From a virus (Duplodnaviria > Heunggongvirae > Uroviricota > Caudoviricetes): a DNA stretch of 17,832 bases. Below the pieces are notes generated by a model. The model saw only the letters and a program-made list of their open reading frames with translations. It made no database searches and had not been told where the DNA came from. The translations under genes and the position numbers were made by a program. The stretch is taken from IMG/VR virus record IMGVR_UViG_2703718823_000018; one strand, written 5' to 3'. Positions 545-17,832 of the stretch are shown here, piece after piece (position 1 is the first letter of the stretch; every line of letters starts with the position of its first letter).

Positions 545-550
545 GCATGT

Positions 551-576
551 AAAAAGGCTCCTGCGATGAGGAGCCT
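551..576 (-). terminator. Intrinsic terminator, minus-strand orientation, downstream of the tRNA array
   Basis: Perfect 8-bp stem (aggctcct 555-562 / aggagcct 569-576); on the minus strand it is followed by TTTTT (complement of 551-555). Confidence 0.5.
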
Positions 577-883
577 GGATATATGCCTAATCTCTGTATA
601 CAGCATGATGCCGGGTGCCTCCCGGTGAGTTCAGTATCAGCACCTGAACCCGCACCAGATAAGGGATATAACCAACCACCTGTCGCTGATATGCCCCTCC
701 GCACAGGGGGATTCACCATGCCAGTTTCTTTTAACAAATACTCAGTCTGACAGGCAACTGTCAACTGACTGAATTGTGAGACATTTAAAATTTTCGGGGC
801 ATGACTGATACCCGGCTAACCACCTGATGCTTCCTTTTTTAGCAACAAACAGGTCCACCAAAGTGAGACAGAAAAAATAAGTG

Positions 884-960
884 TGGCGCGTTGTACTGGA
901 TTCGAACCAGTGACCGATTGCTTAGAAGGCAATTGCTCTGTCCGGCTGAGCTAACAACGC
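884..960 (-). tRNA. tRNA-Arg (anticodon UCU)
   Basis: Reverse complement gcgttgttagctcagccggacagagcaattgccttctaagcaatcggtcactggttcgaatccagtacaacgcgcca folds as a cloverleaf: 7-bp acceptor stem, TTCGAAT T-loop, anticodon loop cTTCTAa, 3' CCA. Confidence 0.85.
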
Positions 961-973
961 ATGATGCTGATAA

Positions 974-1050
974 TGGACCGCCATCGAGGACTCGAACCCC
1001 GCGCAGCCAGCTCCGAAGGCTGGCGCTCTATCCCGATGAGCTAATGGCGG
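974..1050 (-). tRNA. tRNA-Arg (anticodon UCG)
   Basis: Reverse complement ccgccattagctcatcgggatagagcgccagccttcggagctggctgcgcggggttcgagtcctcgatggcggtcca: acceptor ccgccat/atggcgg with a C1:G72 pair, anticodon loop cTTCGGa, TTCGAGT T-loop, CCA end. Confidence 0.75.
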
Positions 1051-1059
1051 TATGTGATA

Positions 1060-1135
1060 TGGTGGCCCTTGCTGGATTTGAACCAGCGACCTGGCGATTA
1101 TGAGTCGCTCGCTCTCACCACTGAGCTAAAGGGCC
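1060..1135 (-). tRNA. tRNA with CAU anticodon, most likely tRNA-Ile2 (ileX/ileZ-like); Met cannot be excluded from the anticodon alone
   Basis: Reverse complement ggccctttagctcagtggtgagagcgagcgactcataatcgccaggtcgctggttcaaatccagcaagggccacca: cloverleaf with anticodon loop cTCATAa. Closely resembles the E. coli ileX sequence as I recall it. The Ile-Arg-Arg trio downstream of Q is typical of lambdoid and Stx phages. Confidence 0.8.
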
Positions 1136-5613: not shown

Positions 5614-5769
5614 TTACTCCTCAGGTTCGTAAGCTGTGAAGACAGTGACCTCCGTCTGGCCGGTTCGGATTCGTACCTCGCAGAGGTCTTTCCTCGTTAC
5701 CAGTGCCGTCACAATGACGGTAATACAGATGACGATCAGGGCGACTAACATCGCCTTTTGCTGCTTCAT
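5614..5769 (-). CDS. hokD: Hok/Gef-family type I toxin (HokD/RelF-like), 51 aa
   Basis: Translation MKQQKAMLVALIVICITVIVTALVTRKDLCEVRIRTGQTEVTVFTAYEPEE: transmembrane helix plus conserved RKDLCEVR and TEV..FTAYE blocks of Hok proteins. AGGAG 8 nt upstream of the ATG. Absent from the ORF track (below 60 aa). Confidence 0.9.
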   Translation of the reverse strand: MKQQKAMLVALIVICITVIVTALVTRKDLCEVRIRTGQTEVTVFTAYEPEE

Positions 5770-5825
5770 AGCCTGCTTCTCCTTGACCTTTCGGTCCGTA
5801 AGAGGCTAATCTCTATGTGTCGCAT
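5766..5825 (-). CDS. mok-like upstream ORF (19 codons) coupled to hok
   Basis: ATG at 5825 (MRHIEISLLRTERSRRSRL); its TGA overlaps the hok ATG (cTATGAag). The uORF start lies inside a hairpin (tctatg-tgtcg-cataga, 5812-5828). Analogous to mok but much shorter than plasmid R1 mok. Confidence 0.4.
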   Translation of the reverse strand: MRHIEISLLRTERSRRSRL

Positions 5826-6027
5826 AGATATGGCCTCAGATTAATGTTAAGCGTCTTGCAGGACGCGTAATGTTAACTGGGGCTTTTCTCTATCTGCCTT
5901 TTGGTGTTCATGCCTGAGACAGATAGCCTCAAGCACCCGCAGTTATTCTACTTAACTAAGATTTCCCCGCAAACCGTTTTTGTCCGGCACAGTAAATATC
6001 CAACTAAACCAATGGCGTTCGCTGTAT

Positions 6028-7641: not shown

Positions 7642-8080
7642 GCTCCTCTCCTTTGATGCGAATGCCAGAGACGCGTAATGCGTGTTCTAGGTCAATCAGG
7701 TAAAGCCAACTGCCATTTTCTTTAGGTATCATGACATGTCGCTCATCTGCATTTATCGGGTGTCCATATCGAAGGTCGTAGCGAGTCGGTAATTGAACTT
7801 CCCGCGCTTCCAGTTCAGCAATACGCTTGCTCCCATCAGAGATAACGCCTTCGTAATACTCACGCTGCTCTTTGAGTTGTGATTTTGCTTCTTCCAGTCC
7901 ATCCAGCAAATCAGCGATAATATCCGCTTCCCGATGACGGATGTGACGCTTAAACGCAGCAAGAGCCGCATCACAATCCCGTTCAGCATTTGGGCTGTCC
8001 GGGATAGCCTGATACCACGCCAGCGTCGACTGATAGTTTTGTGCTGCCTCACGAAGCGCCTCATAGTTAACCTCTCTCAT
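7619..8080 (-). CDS. Hypothetical protein (153 aa)
   Basis: ATG at 8080 with GGAGGTGG upstream; ATGA overlap with the upstream stop. Confidence 0.6.
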   Translation of the reverse strand: MREVNYEALREAAQNYQSTLAWYQAIPDSPNAERDCDAALAAFKRHIRHREADIIADLLDGLEEAKSQLKEQREYYEGVISDGSKRIAELEAREVQLPTRYDLRYGHPINADERHVMIPKENGSWLYLIDLEHALRVSGIRIKGEEHGNKTRG

Positions 8081-8373
8081 TGAGCCACCTCCTGATAAAT
8101 CACTGCATGCCCCAGTTTCTCCGCCAGTGCCAGCTCTGCCTTAGCGCCCGCTGACCGCTGCCAGCCATTCAGCATGTAAATCGCATCCACACAACGAATC
8201 ATTGCCATGCAAATATCCATGTAGTGCGGCTGTGTCAGCCCGTCCGGAAGTACTGCCGGGTTTAAGACGGTATGCCCTTCCCGTTTCAGTTCCTCTTCCG
8301 CCTTGTGAAACGCCTCACGGTTGAAATTTTCATATCCCGTCATTGGACCGGCAATATAAACTCTGCCCCTCAC
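8077..8373 (-). CDS. DUF4406-like protein (nucleoside 2-deoxyribosyltransferase-like fold), 98 aa
   Basis: GTG start at 8373 overlapping the upstream stop (GTGA), with AGGAGG 9 nt upstream. RVYIAGPMTGYENFN...VLNP is the characteristic N-terminal motif of this fold. The longer ORF-track start would overlap the upstream gene. Confidence 0.55.
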   Translation of the reverse strand: MRGRVYIAGPMTGYENFNREAFHKAEEELKREGHTVLNPAVLPDGLTQPHYMDICMAMIRCVDAIYMLNGWQRSAGAKAELALAEKLGHAVIYQEVAQ

Positions 8374-8762
8374 TCCATCACCTCCTGAAAGTTTCCCCGA
8401 TAGAACGCCAGCACACGCTGCATAACTTCGCTCTGGCGGCACTCACGACAAATTATGTTCTGCCGTCTGTTGTAACGACGTATTTCTCCGTCAGGTAACT
8501 TTCGAATCAGTGTCGGGTCAGCAGCCTTCTCCGGTATCTTACGCCATACGCGATACGCCTGCTCTGATGGAAATACCCCGCAACCAGAGAGCCAGACATC
8601 ACCACTGGCCGCAAGCGCACCAGATAAACGACGAATAGCGGTCTTACTGACACCCGTTTTATCTGCCAGTTGTCGAAAAGTTTCTCGTCCGCTCAGGCGC
8701 ACGAATTCCACAATGCGCGCCTTCACTTCTTCCCGCTCTTCTGGTGTAAATACTTTTGCCAT
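8370..8762 (-). CDS. Helix-turn-helix DNA-binding protein (130 aa)
   Basis: ATG at 8762 with GGAGG 5 nt upstream. HTH-like segment RETFRQLADKTGVSKTAIRRLSGAL and a C-x2-C pair near the C-terminus. Confidence 0.6.
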   Translation of the reverse strand: MAKVFTPEEREEVKARIVEFVRLSGRETFRQLADKTGVSKTAIRRLSGALAASGDVWLSGCGVFPSEQAYRVWRKIPEKAADPTLIRKLPDGEIRRYNRRQNIICRECRQSEVMQRVLAFYRGNFQEVME

Positions 8763-11886: not shown

Positions 11887-12294
11887 ATGAAAAACGAAAC
11901 CTTCGGTGCTCGCCTCTTATACAGGCGTAAAAAATTAAAACTGTCTCAGGCCGCATTAGGTAAGCTGGTCAAAGTGGCTCACGTAACAATTTCTCAATGG
12001 GAAAGAGATGAAACACAGCCAGCGGGGAAGAGATTATTCGCACTGAGCCAGGCGCTTCAGTGCTCGCCGACTTGGCTTCTTTTTGGAGATGAAGATAAGC
12101 AACCAGGCGAACCGATCTCAGATAATCAGCCAGTTAATCTGACAGAAGATCAAAAAGAGTTGCTTCAACTGTTCGACGCACTGCCTGAGTCAGAGCAAAA
12201 GGCTCTGTTGTCAGAGATGCGTGCTCGAGTTGAGAATTTCAACAAACTTTTTGAAGAACTACTCAAAGCTCGCAAAAGAAGCGCAAATAAATAA
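11887..12294 (+). CDS. dicA: DicA-like HTH (XRE-family) prophage repressor, 135 aa
   Basis: N-terminal HTH (LKLSQAALGKLVKVAHVTISQWERDETQP), no LexA-type peptidase domain; blocks such as FALSQALQCSPTWLLFGDEDKQP and MRARVENFNKLFEELLKARKR match my recollection of K-12 DicA (135 aa). Confidence 0.85.
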   Translation: MKNETFGARLLYRRKKLKLSQAALGKLVKVAHVTISQWERDETQPAGKRLFALSQALQCSPTWLLFGDEDKQPGEPISDNQPVNLTEDQKELLQLFDALPESEQKALLSEMRARVENFNKLFEELLKARKRSANK

Positions 12295-12440: not shown

Positions 12441-12501
12441 CCGCACGGTGTTCTCAGCAAACTGTTCCGCTCCCCCGGCGTTAAGGGGAAATGAGGTCAG
12501 C

Positions 12502-12654
12502 ATGGATACTATCGAGCTTGGCAACAGCGAATCTCTGGTATGCGGCGTGTTTCCCAACCAGGACGGCACGTTTACCGCGATGACGTATACCAGAAGCAAA
12601 ACGTTTAAAACTGAAGCTGGCGCGCGTCGCTGGTTAGCCAGAAACACTGACTGA
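12502..12654 (+). CDS. ydfA: YdfA-like small protein (50 aa)
   Basis: ATG at 12502 preceded by GAGGT. MDTIELGNSESLVCGVFPNQDGTFTAMTYTRSKTFKTEAGARRWLARNTD; first gene after dicA as in Qin. The ORF-track start further upstream lacks an RBS. Confidence 0.65.
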   Translation: MDTIELGNSESLVCGVFPNQDGTFTAMTYTRSKTFKTEAGARRWLARNTD

Positions 12655-12665
12655 TGAGGTTGACG

Positions 12666-13040
12666 ATGGAATTTAAAGATTTACCAGTACCATTCCAGGA
12701 AATGGCATCGAATGTGGTTCGCTCTCAACTGGCGACTCTTGACCTGAGTACCGTAGAAAAAGAAACAATCGACAATATATCCGGTAACGTACGCCGAGCC
12801 TTTATCGGGCTGTACGAAGAGAAGCAGCTCTCTGATAACCAGGATTTACATGAAAAATACTTTCTGGAATTAATGGACATCATTAATAAAGGATTTGGCT
12901 TGTTAATGAAAAAGAAAGGGATTCGAATAGCTCCCCTTGAAAATCATTTTACAGCAAGCAGTATTAATTCCTGTGATTTAAAGCATCACACATCCGATGG
13001 GAAAGTTGAATCAAACAACAAAATATCAATTAATCATTAA
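12666..13040 (+). CDS. Hypothetical protein (124 aa), AT-rich, inside the DicA-repressed operon
   Basis: ATG at 12666 with GAGG 8 nt upstream. Hydrophilic, no recognisable motif. Occupies the slot where K-12 Qin carries ydfB/ydfC, but is not obviously related to them. Confidence 0.5.
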   Translation: MEFKDLPVPFQEMASNVVRSQLATLDLSTVEKETIDNISGNVRRAFIGLYEEKQLSDNQDLHEKYFLELMDIINKGFGLLMKKKGIRIAPLENHFTASSINSCDLKHHTSDGKVESNNKISINH

Positions 13041-13344: not shown

Positions 13345-13402
13345 TTTCTGGTGACGTTTGGCGGTATCAGTTTTACTCCGTGACTGCTCTGCCACCCTTT
13401 TT
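13345..13402 (+). ncRNA. dicF: DicF small RNA
   Basis: tttctggtgacgtttggcggtatcagttttactccgtgactgctctgccaccc followed by TTTTT matches my recollection of the 53-nt DicF sequence at all but about one position; located between ydfA and dicB as in Qin. Exact ends are approximate. Confidence 0.8.
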
Positions 13403-13584: not shown

Positions 13585-13773
13585 ATGGAAACGTTATTAC
13601 CAAACGTTAATACGTCTGAAGGTTGTTTTGATATTGGTGTTCTGCTCAGTAACCGGGAGTTTACGGAAGATGCCATTAAGATGAGAAAATATGAACCTTA
13701 TCTTCTCAATGATAATTCCATACTTTCCAGAATTGCCCTTCTTGAACTTGGTATTATCGGAGAACAGCAGTGA
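13585..13773 (+). CDS. dicB: DicB-like cell-division inhibitor (62 aa)
   Basis: ATG at 13585 with GAGGA upstream. METLLPNVNTSEGCFDIGV...FTEDAI closely matches the DicB N-terminus as I recall it. Confidence 0.8.
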   Translation: METLLPNVNTSEGCFDIGVLLSNREFTEDAIKMRKYEPYLLNDNSILSRIALLELGIIGEQQ

Positions 13774-13958
13774 CTTCAGCATTTGCACTGGTGATGACCG
13801 TTTTTCTTATAACGGGTGAGCCACAAAATGTGATTACCGGAATTTATGACAGTAAGTCATCCTGCATTCAGGTAAGGGACGAACAAAAAATCCCCGGTGA
13901 ATGCCTCCCGTTAAAAAAAGTATCGCTGAACCTGAATAACGAAATACCGGCTGGATAA
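13770..13958 (+). CDS. ydfD: YdfD-like small membrane protein (62 aa)
   Basis: GTG start overlapping the dicB stop (GTGA). N-terminal hydrophobic segment SAFALVMTVFLITGEP and ...EQKIPGEC...EIPAG resemble Qin YdfD as I recall it. Confidence 0.6.
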   Translation: MTSAFALVMTVFLITGEPQNVITGIYDSKSSCIQVRDEQKIPGECLPLKKVSLNLNNEIPAG

Positions 13959-14053
13959 CCCGCCAGCCATATTAACGCCATACCAACGGATTAAAAATGC
14001 CAGCAATGGCAGGGATTCGTTCACCCTGAAATCTGTAATGAGGTTAAAACAAA

Positions 14054-16525
14054 ATGAGTAAAGTCTTTATTTGCGCCGCTATTCCTGACGAACTGGCAAC
14101 AAGGGAAGAAGGCGCTGTGGCTGTAGCCACAGCCATTGAAGCTGGCGACGAACGCCGTGCTCGAGCAAAATTTCACTGGCAATTCCTGGAACATTATCCG
14201 GCTGCTCAGGACTGCGCTTATAAATTTATTGTCTGCGAGGATAAACCCGGCATACCCCGCCCTGCCCTCGATTCCTGGGATACCGAATATATGCAGGAAA
14301 ATCGCTGGGATGAGGAGTCAGCTTCCTTTGTACCGGTCGAACCTGAATCCGATCCGATGAACGTCAATTTTGACAAGCTGTCCCCTGAAGTACAGAACGC
14401 AGTCCTGGTTAAATTCGACACATGCGAAAACATCACCGTTGATATGGTGATTAGCGCACAGGAATTACTACAGGAAGACATGGCAACATTCGGCGGACAT
14501 ATCGTTGAAGCGTTTATGAAAATGCCAGAAGTTAACTCCATGTATCCTGAACTTAAACTGCATGCCATCGGGTGGGTTAAGCATAAATGTGAGCCTGGCG
14601 CTAAATGGCCTGAAATTCAGGCAGAGATGCGCATCTGGAAAAAACGCCGCGAAGGTGAACGCAAGGAAACCGGAAAATACACGTCTGTTGTTGATCTCGC
14701 CCGTTCCAGAGTAAACCAACAGAACACTGAAAACGCTGCTGAAAAAAACGGAGCTGTCACTGTTGCCGTTCGCCGCGAATACAAACAGACATGGAAAACT
14801 CTCGACAATGAGCTGGCCTGCGCCCTCTGGCCCGGTGATGTGGATGCGGGAAACATTGACGGCAGCATCCATCGCTGGGCAAAAAATGAAGTTATCGACA
14901 ACGACCGCGAAGACTGGAAGCGTATCTCGGCATCAATGCGCAAACAGCCTGAAGCACTTGGCTATGACCGTCAGACTATTTTTGGCCTTGTCCGTGAACG
15001 TCCGATCGACATTCACAAAGATCCCGTGGCGCTGAACAAATACATCACTGAATACCTGACTACAAAGGGCGTGTTTGAAGATGAAGGAACAAATCAGAGC
15101 ACAACTAATACTCTCCCGTCGCCAGTACCAGAAGCTGATGCAGTGGAAACGGCAATGCCGGACAACGAAAAAACCGAATGCAAAGTGGAAGTCGAACCAT
15201 CTGTAGAGCGTGAGGGGCCGTTCTATTTCCTCTTCACCGACAAGGATGGCGAAAAATACGGTCGCGCAAACAAACTTTCTGGTCTGGATAAGGCGCTGGC
15301 TGCCGGGGCAACTGAAATCACGAAAGAAGAATATTTTGCCCGCAAAAACGGCACATACACAGGTTCACAACAAAATACTGATGCATCTGACACGACCGCA
15401 CAACCAGACCTGGTAAAAGTTACCGCTGACGAAGTAAACAAAATTATGCAGGCAGCCAGTATCAGCCAGCCTGACGCCGATAAGTTGCTTGCTGCCTCTC
15501 GCGGAGAATTTGTTGCAGGGATTAGCGACCCGAATGATCCGAAATGGGTAAAGGGGATTGAAACCCGCGATTCTGTAGACCAGAACCAGCAAGAATCGGA
15601 ACAGAACGACCAGAAAGCGGAACAAAACAGCCCAAATGCGTTACAAAACGAGCCAGAAACGAAACAACCTGAACCAGTAGTGCAACAGGAACCGGAAAAG
15701 ATCTGCACCGCCTGCGGTCAGACCGGCGGCGGCAACTGCCCTGATTGTGGCGCGGTGATGGGCGACGCAACATACCAGGAAACATTCGATGAAGAGTATC
15801 AGGTTGAAGTTCAGGAAGATGATCCGGAGGAAATGGAAGGCGCTGAACATCCACACAAGGAGAATGCTGGCAGCGCTCAGGATCACGCCAGCGATAGTGA
15901 AACTGGCGAGACGGCAGATCCCTTAATTACGGTGAACGGTCATCACGTTATCACATCCACCAGCAGGTTGTGGCACCATCTGATGATTGACCTTGAAACC
16001 ATGGGAAAAAATCCTGATGCCCCGATCATCTCAATAGGTGCAATATTTTTCGATCCGCAAACCGGAGATATGGGACCGGAATTTAGTAAGACTATCGATC
16101 TGGAAACTGCTGGCGGGGTCATTGATCGGGACACCATTAAATGGTGGCTTAAGCAATCACGCGAAGCGCAATCTGCCATTATGACCGATGAAATCCCGTT
16201 AGATGATGCACTGTTACAATTGCGGGAATTTATCGACGAAAACTCCGGTGAATTTTTTGTTCAGGTCTGGGGAAATGGAGCCAACTTCGACAACACGATT
16301 TTGCGCCGTTCATACGAACGGCAGGGGATCCCCTGCCCGTGGCGTTACTACAACGATCGCGATGTACGCACAATCGTTGAGCTGGGGAAAGCCATAGACT
16401 TCGATGCCAGAACTGTTACCCCATTCGAAGGTGAGCGCCATAATGCACTTGATGACGCCCGTTATCAGGCAAAATACGTTTCAGCTATCTGGCAAAAACT
16501 GATCCCGAGTCAGGCTGATTTTTAA
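14054..16525 (+). CDS. Large multidomain protein (823 aa) with C-terminal DEDDh 3'-5' exonuclease domain; possibly the full-length counterpart of K-12 ydfE
   Basis: Uninterrupted 2472-nt ORF. C-terminal about 200 aa carry DnaQ-like motifs: Exo I MIDLETMG, Exo II WGNGANFD, Exo III HNALDDARY. A C-x2-C-x8-C-x2-C zinc ribbon (CTACGQTGGGNCPDCG) and an acidic Q/E-rich linker precede it. N-terminal about 550 aa unrecognised. Confidence 0.8.
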   Translation: MSKVFICAAIPDELATREEGAVAVATAIEAGDERRARAKFHWQFLEHYPAAQDCAYKFIVCEDKPGIPRPALDSWDTEYMQENRWDEESASFVPVEPESDPMNVNFDKLSPEVQNAVLVKFDTCENITVDMVISAQELLQEDMATFGGHIVEAFMKMPEVNSMYPELKLHAIGWVKHKCEPGAKWPEIQAEMRIWKKRREGERKETGKYTSVVDLARSRVNQQNTENAAEKNGAVTVAVRREYKQTWKTLDNELACALWPGDVDAGNIDGSIHRWAKNEVIDNDREDWKRISASMRKQPEALGYDRQTIFGLVRERPIDIHKDPVALNKYITEYLTTKGVFEDEGTNQSTTNTLPSPVPEADAVETAMPDNEKTECKVEVEPSVEREGPFYFLFTDKDGEKYGRANKLSGLDKALAAGATEITKEEYFARKNGTYTGSQQNTDASDTTAQPDLVKVTADEVNKIMQAASISQPDADKLLAASRGEFVAGISDPNDPKWVKGIETRDSVDQNQQESEQNDQKAEQNSPNALQNEPETKQPEPVVQQEPEKICTACGQTGGGNCPDCGAVMGDATYQETFDEEYQVEVQEDDPEEMEGAEHPHKENAGSAQDHASDSETGETADPLITVNGHHVITSTSRLWHHLMIDLETMGKNPDAPIISIGAIFFDPQTGDMGPEFSKTIDLETAGGVIDRDTIKWWLKQSREAQSAIMTDEIPLDDALLQLREFIDENSGEFFVQVWGNGANFDNTILRRSYERQGIPCPWRYYNDRDVRTIVELGKAIDFDARTVTPFEGERHNALDDARYQAKYVSAIWQKLIPSQADF

Positions 16526-16592: not shown

Positions 16593-16835
16593 ATGTACGA
16601 ATTAACTCTATCTCCAGCAGAGATTAAAGAGATCACGAAATACGAGCGATACACAAAACAGCAACACCAGTTAAGACTGCACGGCATCCCATTTGTAATC
16701 GGTCCTAAAAACGAACCAATAGTTCTACGCAGGGATATTCCACACGGACTGACAACGATGCCAAAAACATCTGAACTGGTTTCTGCTGAACCCGATTTTG
16801 AGGCACTGAACAATGGGAAGACCAAGAAAAAATAA
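16593..16835 (+). CDS. Putative excisionase-like protein (80 aa)
   Basis: Small ORF immediately upstream of the integrase, overlapping it by 23 nt; basic C-terminal tail. Assignment rests mainly on position; RBS is weak. Confidence 0.4.
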   Translation: MYELTLSPAEIKEITKYERYTKQQHQLRLHGIPFVIGPKNEPIVLRRDIPHGLTTMPKTSELVSAEPDFEALNNGKTKKK

Positions 16836-17832
16836 AAAAGATAATGTACTGCCACCGCGGGTTAGATCGAATGGTTACAGTTACGTGTGGAAACCAGAAG
16901 GAAGTACAAGAACTATAGGGCTAGGAAGAGTGCGGAAAACCAGCGTAGCTAAAGTCTGGCAAAATTATGAACTGGAAAAAGCAAAACTCCACAACATAAT
17001 GACCGTAGCTAAATTATGGCACATGTTTATGGACTCCCCTGCATTTACAGAACTGGCCCCCCGAACCCAAAAAGATTATCGACAACATCAGAAGGCGTTG
17101 CTGATGGTATTCGGAAAAGTGCTTGCTGATAATGTCAAAACTGAGCAGGTAAGAATTTTCATGGATAAACGAGGGCTTGAGAGCAAGACCCAGGCAAATC
17201 ATGAACTGGCAAGCCTGAGTCGAGTATACGGGTGGGGATATGAGCGTGGATACGTGAAGAATAACCCATGTAAAGGAGTCAGAAAATTCTCTCTTAAAGC
17301 CCGCACTGTTTACATCACCGATGAACAGTATGCAGCGATATATGCGGAAGCAATTCCACAGTTACGCATTGCAATGGAGATTTCCTATCTCTGTGCGGCA
17401 AGGCTCGGTGATGTGCTTGAGTTGAAATGGCAGGATATTATGGATAAAGGGATCTACATTGAGCAAAACAAAACCGGCACCAAACAAATCAAGGAATGGT
17501 CACCGCGATTACGTACAGCGATCCAGTTAGCCCGAAATGTATCTTCCTGTACATGCGAATATGTGATCAATACAACCAAAGGCGGGAAAGTCATAGCTAA
17601 AACGCTGAACAACTGGTGGAATCAGGCTAAACGCTCAGCCGAGCAAAAAGTTGGCGTTCCGTTCGGGTGCAATTTTCACGACATAAAAGCCAAGGGGATC
17701 TCAGATTACGAAGGCAGCAGTCGCGACAAACAAATTTTCAGCGGGCATAAAACAGAAAATCAGGTGTTGATTTACGATCGTAAAACAAAAATCACACCAA
17801 CACTGGATCTGCCGCTCGTGGTTAGCAAGTAG
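16813..17832 (+). CDS. Tyrosine site-specific recombinase (phage integrase), 339 aa
   Basis: C-terminal catalytic region with AARLGD, FHDIKAKG and SGHKTENQVLIYDR (catalytic Tyr); the last block resembles the lambda Int C-terminus. Stop codon TAG is the last three bases of the window. Confidence 0.85.
   Translation: MGRPRKNKKDNVLPPRVRSNGYSYVWKPEGSTRTIGLGRVRKTSVAKVWQNYELEKAKLHNIMTVAKLWHMFMDSPAFTELAPRTQKDYRQHQKALLMVFGKVLADNVKTEQVRIFMDKRGLESKTQANHELASLSRVYGWGYERGYVKNNPCKGVRKFSLKARTVYITDEQYAAIYAEAIPQLRIAMEISYLCAARLGDVLELKWQDIMDKGIYIEQNKTGTKQIKEWSPRLRTAIQLARNVSSCTCEYVINTTKGGKVIAKTLNNWWNQAKRSAEQKVGVPFGCNFHDIKAKGISDYEGSSRDKQIFSGHKTENQVLIYDRKTKITPTLDLPLVVSK

Follow-up and report, generated by a model that had tools for sequence, protein, structure and literature searches.

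In the 17,832-nucleotide (nt) sequence of IMG/VR record IMGVR_UViG_2703718823_000018 (hereafter the window), we found that the gene at 14054-16525 (+) of this Escherichia coli lambdoid prophage encodes a fusion between a RecE-type scaffold and an unrelated exonuclease domain. The open reading frame (ORF) is intact, with an ATG start, and its 823-amino-acid (aa) product is full-length YdfE. The non-catalytic body of RecE (N1 module, M module, zinc ribbon and acidic linker) has been kept, with the PD-(D/E)XK 5'-3' nuclease replaced by a DEDDh domain of the DexA/Rv2179c type. Identity and architecture are well established at the level of sequence and make the protein a real, unstudied variant of RecE, not a classical recombinase. 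Its biological role, DNA substrate and expression we infer: in our preferred reading, to which we give a probability of about 0.45, it would be an annealase-independent 3'-5' exonuclease of DNA ends, made on prophage induction.

The non-catalytic body corresponds to that of RecE

BLASTP against K-12 RecE aligned residues 262-626 with RecE 278-592 (E 2e-63), and residues 470-626, which comprise a conserved peptide, the zinc ribbon and the acidic linker, were about 90% identical to RecE 448-592. The NCBIfam RecE equivalog NF007259 aligned to residues 226-626 with a score below its equivalog cutoff (288 bits against 1269). At the DNA level, nt 1425-1874 of the gene were 77.8% identical to nt 1365-1772 of recE, after which homology ended just ahead of the RecE nuclease domain; in the protein it terminated at RecE residue 592. 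The nuclease domain of RecE has been assigned to residues 564-866 and its N-terminal region described as 'of unknown function' (PMC11611040). Residues 1-225 gave no match to RecE by BLAST. When YdfE-type and RecE-type N-modules were compared by hhalign, residues 15-206 aligned with RecE 12-223 (probability 98.9%, E 2e-17). We regard it as well established from these alignments that residues 1-626 correspond to RecE 1-592 and that the catalytic domain alone is non-homologous. A body homologous throughout, next to a nuclease that alone differs, indicates a domain swap on the RecE scaffold.

The preliminary description of this DNA had taken about 550 N-terminal residues, the zinc ribbon and the acidic linker to be of unrecognised function, a view that the BLASTP and hhalign matches overturn. 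The profile search of the N-terminal region that it had suggested returned RecE homology, not an orphan sequence. Newer Pfam releases already name parts of this region YdfE_N (PF27430) and YdfE_C (PF27432).

A single-sequence AlphaFold2 (AF2) model of the whole protein was not usable, with a mean predicted local distance difference test score (pLDDT) of 34. For the separate modules, AF2 pLDDT was 88-98 (N1), 94-98 (M) and 94-97 (a small domain inside the linker, residues 385-435, which falls in a gap of the BLASTP alignment to K-12 RecE). The M module was mapped by BLAST onto 33 long representatives and by alignment. The C4 zinc ribbon (CxxC...CxxC) is formed by C551, C554, C562 and C565 (window 15704-15748), with the acidic stretch after it. 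No Rad52-, RecT- or Erf-like fold was recognised in the scaffold model.

The catalytic domain is of the DexA type

Residues 641-813 matched PF16473 (Rv2179c-like 3'-5' exoribonuclease domain) with 224.8 bits against a cutoff of 27 (E 7.9e-67), over profile positions 1-177 of 177, and a Pfam search of the 823-aa protein found no PD-(D/E)XK domain such as the PF12684-like one that RecE has at about residues 593-866. The catalytic motifs are MIDLET (D646, E648), GANFD (D746) and HNALDDA (H796, D801), giving the D-x-E of Exo I, the D of Exo II and the H-x4-D of Exo III. All five residues were invariant wherever covered among nine family members, including gp34 of phage LLS and an EcD-like protein. 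The nuclease had been described beforehand as DnaQ-like and not of the lambda Exo/RecE fold, and the PF16473 match, together with the presence of DLET, GANFD and HNALDDA, bears this out. Characterised nucleases of the DEDDh fold have 3'-5' polarity. Going by sequence, it is well established that the C-terminal domain is a DnaQ/DexA-type DEDDh 3'-5' exonuclease, with a well supported enzyme identity and a predicted polarity and activity. By its fold, it would not be a 5'-3' double-stranded DNA (dsDNA) exonuclease leaving 3' tails, as in systems of the RecET/lambda Red type.

A PDB sequence search (E <= 10) matched one DEDDh structure only, T4 DexA (exonuclease A; 8KEL/8KEN; E 6e-8), which is a 3'-5' DNA exonuclease (PMC12153337). 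The two proteins have PF16473 and the DEDDh catalytic set in common, but DexA is a stand-alone protein of 227 aa from a virulent phage, whereas the domain studied here comes from a temperate phage and is fused behind a scaffold of 626 residues, and identity between them is low. LLS gp34 (58% identity), another stand-alone homologue of the C-terminal domain, has no RecE-type scaffold; its gene fills the corresponding place, immediately ahead of xis-int, in a lambdoid phage that is Chi-rich and lacks a Rec module.

The annealase partner goes with the PD-(D/E)XK domain

There is no annealase gene between 13958 and 16593, as had been noted previously, and the negative result extends across the entire window. 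PHROGs scans of 20 of its ORFs found no annealase, single-strand DNA-binding protein (SSB) or anti-RecBCD gene, only RusA and a DUF968/HNH protein, and tblastn of RecT, Bet, Erf, lambda Exo, Gam and Abc2 against the whole window gave no matches.

We compared the genes that follow the nuclease in different lineages. A RecT-family gene lies directly 3' of the PD-(D/E)XK type in K-12 RecE, L009, L015, P0245, P0195, P0267 and the YdfE-type P0130. In the PD-(D/E)XK lineage P0225, the next gene, in RecT's expected place, encodes a 271-aa protein (phrog_3657, no Pfam match; L208:7565-8380 (+)), which is a candidate unrecognised annealase. The DEDDh lineages (window type, L005, P0241, P0264, P0139, P0122) run from the nuclease directly into xis and/or int. 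RecT directly followed the nuclease in 7 of 8 PD-(D/E)XK lineages versus 0 of 6 DEDDh lineages (Fisher p = 0.005). No RecT, Bet, Erf, lambda Exo, Gam or Abc2 was found within flanks of up to 8 kb at 85 close DEDDh loci, and RecT was present in 76 of 80 Rac-type loci. In the lineages compared, it is the PD-(D/E)XK domain, not the scaffold, with which an annealase partner is associated, and this explains why no annealase is found here.

The scaffold carries exchangeable ends and is conserved

When 1.84 billion representatives were searched exhaustively with HMMER, only 246 clusters matched, which suggests a narrow family, and all relatives with a traceable organism were enterobacterial. A separate homologue search retrieved only E. 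coli proteins (89-99% identity); loci of relatives were located with an alignment of the M module. Long members share one layout, in which a YdfE-like or RecE-like N-module is followed by the universal M module, then by the linker with the zinc ribbon, and then by a variable end. This end can be DEDDh, PD-(D/E)XK or without a recognisable domain, and either N-module type occurs. One member, P0128, joins a RecE N-terminus (100% identity) to the DEDDh domain (96% identity), indicating that swaps are recent and recurrent.

Scaffold proteins of about 700-790 aa without a recognisable C-terminal nuclease are encoded at L012:7347-9620, L013:7347-9608 and L213:5001-7109, and P0125, P0129, P0133, P0134, P0151, P0179, P0182 and P0214 are further members of this kind. 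At L012 and L013, which are Erwinia/Pantoea loci, the nuclease-less gene is followed by a Sipho_Gp157 gene. This type matches the 'RecE-2' proteins of PMC12315714. On one metagenomic contig (L205:6242-8695) the scaffold gene is found as two ORFs, of 230 aa (PF06630 and YdfE_C) and then 564 aa (PF06630 and PF16473), possibly through duplication or a frameshift.

The fusion gene is under purifying selection. The ratio of nonsynonymous to synonymous substitution rates (dN/dS) was 0.09-0.44 across all modules, about 0.1 for N1 and 0.10-0.17 for M, and the protein was full length in 71 of 75 non-edge homologues; on this intactness and these ratios, the possibility that the ORF is a fusion artefact or a relic was rejected. 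DNA from the zinc-ribbon linker to the DEDDh domain was covered to at least 80% in 4072 of 5426 complete E. coli genomes (~75%), with matches to the fusion junction at a median of two places per genome and a maximum of nine. The identical 823-aa protein is present in NCBI under the name 'exonuclease', its 90%-identity cluster has 18,012 members, and phrog_2082 matches it end to end.

The prophage is rich in Chi sites

The window contains 9 Chi sites, one per 1.98 kb, against 0.49 sites expected from shuffles. DEDDh-type loci had a mean density of 0.28 per kb versus 0.04 per kb for the Chi-poor Rac-type loci. Phage LLS has been reported to carry one Chi per 1.86 kb, and E. coli one per 4.6 kb (Zheng et al. 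2025, PMC12315714). In the same study, lambdoid phages without a Rec module were Chi-rich and RecBCD enhanced the growth of LLS; DnaQ-type nuclease genes near int were noted in some phages and not counted as Rec-module genes, and a fusion of such a nuclease to a RecE-type scaffold is not described (PMC12315714). The window resembles these 'no Rec module, high Chi' phages of the LLS type both in Chi density, which is above the E. coli average, and in having a DnaQ-type nuclease beside int, and its 17.8 kb hold no annealase, lambda Exo, RecE-type nuclease, SSB or anti-RecBCD gene. Being Chi-rich and without a recombination module, the prophage most likely recombines by way of host RecBCD/RecA. 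The Chi site at the scaffold/nuclease junction (Table 1) might have favoured the domain exchange, or may be there by coincidence.

Genomic setting of the gene

The prophage is inserted adjoining yccA. Its early-left operon on the + strand runs from a DicA-like repressor through two small genes, DicF, dicB and ydfD/DUF1482 to the exonuclease gene, the DUF4224 excisionase and the integrase, with no gene between the exonuclease gene and xis (Table 1). The earlier placement of the gene between division-inhibition genes and xis-int therefore stands, and RecE of the Rac prophage (exonuclease VIII) has the same position, after kil/division-inhibition genes and before xis-int. The gap between ydfD and the exonuclease gene contained no promoter-like site and no detected + strand terminator, suggesting that the gene is probably cotranscribed with the dicB operon upon prophage induction. 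An internal start at M644, which would release a stand-alone EcD/gp34-like nuclease, was rejected because there is no convincing ribosome-binding site there.

In K-12, Qin retains only ydfE, a pseudogene disrupted by IS2 that has 91% identity with residues 1-255, in agreement with the truncated ydfE of the preliminary description. The full-length protein had also been called poorly studied, and a literature search on ydfE and on DEDDh with RecE gave no paper on its function.

Table 1. Positions of the exonuclease gene, its domains and other features of the window
Feature	Position	Strand	Description and basis
Whole gene	14054..16525	+	RecE-scaffold/DEDDh exonuclease fusion = full-length YdfE; ORF and translation
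Shine-Dalgarno GAGG	14040..14043	+	10 nt 5' of the ATG of the 823-aa ORF; sequence read
N1 module, residues 1-205	14054..14668	+	alpha/beta and helical; YdfE_N of Pfam; remotely homologous to RecE N-terminal domain PF06630
M module, residues 236-345	14759..15088	+	helical; part conserved in all long family members
Small beta-hairpin/helix domain inside linker, residues 385-435	15206..15358	+	AF2
Conserved peptide, C4 zinc ribbon and acidic linker, residues 470-626	15461..15931	+	BLASTP to RecE
DEDDh 3'-5' exonuclease domain (predicted), residues 641-813	15974..16492	+	PF16473, DexA/Rv2179c family
Junction Chi	15957..15964	-	30 nt past end of recE homology, scaffold/nuclease junction
Chi sites	91, 1535, 4109, 6479	+	window scan
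Chi sites	2349, 2666, 4567, 15957, 16546	-	window scan
DicA-like repressor gene	11887-12294	+	early-left operon
DicF small RNA	13346-13397	+	Rfam
dicB	13585-13773	+	RefSeq annotation of identical locus; PHROGs
ydfD/DUF1482	13770-13958	+	RefSeq annotation of identical locus; PHROGs
DUF4224 excisionase	16593-16835	+	RefSeq annotation of identical locus; PHROGs
Tyrosine integrase	16813-17832	+	RefSeq annotation of identical locus; PHROGs

The two small early-left genes (12448-12654 and 12654-13040, both +; phrog_751 and phrog_6937) are of unknown function and lie in the slot of relBE or ydfA-ydfC in other strains. Rfam matches in the window comprise the STnc100 small RNA, three tRNA genes, the hokD/sok toxin-antitoxin and DicF (545-750 (-), 887-1135 (-), 5614-5938 (-) and 13346-13397 (+)).

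EcD, a related nuclease of P2-like prophages

EcD, an E. coli homologue of DexA, was reported to degrade T4 DNA containing 5-hydroxymethylcytosine (5hmC) and not unmodified DNA, and plasmid-expressed EcD protected against T4 (Kang et al., PMC12153337). Using the primers of that paper, we recovered an EcD-like ORF of 189 aa (MIDTET...TPFLNI, Ala78), which is putatively linked to EcD by the primers and A78 rather than by accession HAK9828821.1. It is a stand-alone protein without the scaffold, 37.7% identical to residues 644-816 (E 1e-34). In P2-like prophages its gene belongs to the early operon, where a Cox-like gene and DUF4754 precede it and the Dam methylase, DUF4406 and replication protein GPA genes follow (L121, IMGVR_UViG_2671181127_000013; also L100, L105, L115, L116 and L118), so that EcD, too, may naturally serve the phage. 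L105 and L016 stem from one IMG genome, and L016 matches the M module of the window with 100% identity. The DUF4406 gene beside the EcD-like gene is at L121:4359-4709 (-); the window also has a DUF4406 gene, at 8077-8442 (-), which matches a nucleoside 2-deoxyribosyltransferase-like PHROG family as well.

Proposed role and alternatives

With its gene last among the cargo of the early-left (dicB) operon, the protein would, on the reading that we prefer, be made on induction. Its RecE-type body would direct the nuclease to the target that RecE also has, and during lytic development the protein would remove nucleotides at DNA 3' ends without a dedicated annealase. Prophage recombination would be handled by host RecBCD/RecA and Chi, with the exonuclease as an accessory trimmer of DNA ends, a role comparable to the 3'-end degradation by DexA in T4 double-strand-break repair. 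The shared RecE scaffold also points to DNA ends rather than to signalling nucleotides. Several points weigh against this proposal. 3'-5' exonucleases usually inhibit homologous recombination, and int-proximal DnaQ-type genes were not treated as recombination functions (PMC12315714). PF16473 takes in RNases (Rv2179c) as well as DNases (DexA), so the substrate of the protein may be RNA or DNA. Near-identical E. coli prophages, which are not phylogenetically independent, make up most of the locus counts, and the lineage table is small. With no more than 17.8 kb of the prophage in view, a recombination gene may lie elsewhere in it.

The main rival reading is that the prophage encodes a defence nuclease of the HREX/EcD type, which would selectively degrade the modified (e.g. 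5hmC) DNA of superinfecting T-even-like phages and so protect the lysogen instead of taking part in the DNA metabolism of the prophage. The activities reported for EcD, its similarity to the C-terminal domain and the extreme commonness of the gene in E. coli speak for it. The tetramer-forming Asp of DexA (D90, Ala78 in EcD) was placed in two ways: MAFFT aligns A719 with EcD A78, a position said to prevent the tetramer, and HMMER aligns D90 with D718. The Trp with which DexA recognises 5hmC (W152) is, by alignment, Tyr766 in the 823-aa protein; the EcD-like protein and LLS gp34 have the Trp, and the nearest relatives carry Tyr or Cys at this position. PADLOC gave a weak, generic DEDDh match only, the gene lies in a repressed early-left operon without a promoter-like site of its own, EcD itself belongs to an early operon of P2-like prophages, and the RecE scaffold would be left unexplained. 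We therefore regard this alternative as unlikely, a defence role of the 823-aa protein being possible but not indicated. A further proposal, which takes up the preliminary description, is that the nuclease serves in anti-defence or host takeover, acting on RNA, immune signalling nucleotides or nucleic acids made by defence systems, such as retron or DRT cDNA, and not on DNA ends of replication or recombination. The family is named after the exoribonuclease Rv2179c, RefSeq often labels the protein a '3'-5' exoribonuclease', and homologues occur widely among phages, both virulent and temperate (753 records). Against this, no similarity to known anti-CBASS, anti-Pycsar or ring nucleases was found in the libraries searched, the nearest relatives of known structure or activity, T4 DexA and EcD, are DNases (PMC12153337), and the scaffold is shared with RecE, a nuclease of dsDNA ends, which makes such a function decidedly unlikely.

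It is very unlikely that the protein is a recombination exonuclease whose partner was missed, either as an unrecognised annealase elsewhere in the prophage or as an annealing or mediator activity within the N-terminal scaffold. Position and scaffold are indeed as in RecE, and the phrog_3657 protein in the RecT slot of one PD-(D/E)XK lineage suggests that unrecognised partners may exist; full-length RecE, and not its nuclease domain alone, enhances linear-linear recombination, as stated where PMC11611040 cites Fu et al. 2012. However, all six DEDDh lineages go from the nuclease into xis/int, neither the window ORFs nor the scaffold model revealed an annealase family or fold, the 3' tails on which annealases work would be lost to a 3'-5' nuclease, and the high Chi density fits reliance on RecBCD. 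The idea of a decaying or chimeric relic of prophage recombination without current function is largely refuted: the K-12 copy is truncated, a few loci are truncated or split and the gene is mosaic, but the dN/dS values, the intact homologues and the conserved catalytic residues contradict decay, as does presence in about three quarters of complete E. coli genomes, frequently as multiple copies.

Implications for RecE and for lambdoid prophages

RecE and the 823-aa protein share N1, M and the zinc ribbon with its acidic linker, and differ in the catalytic domain (PD-(D/E)XK 5'-3' against the unrelated DEDDh 3'-5') and in the recT gene, which follows RecE only. Such a swap indicates for the N-terminal region of RecE a role that depends neither on RecT nor on the type of nuclease attached, and natural domain swaps make this role approachable. 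A further and rather unlikely extension is that the RecE-type N-terminal body may be an autonomous targeting platform for DNA ends or a host factor, with interchangeable cargo: a 5'-3' nuclease with RecT, a 3'-5' nuclease alone, or no nuclease. The DEDDh version would then be a third lambdoid strategy, trimming 3' ends to feed or tune phage DNA for host RecBCD-Chi. If true, this would give a first handle on the long-unexplained 590-residue N-terminus of RecE.

The finding also bears on the claim that E. coli homologues of DexA are bacterial defence genes, since EcD and the 823-aa protein are both encoded in prophage early operons. The fusion is among the commonest E. coli prophage genes, yet our literature search found no study of it. 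It links prophages of this type to the Chi-rich lambdoid phages that use host RecBCD in place of a module of their own.

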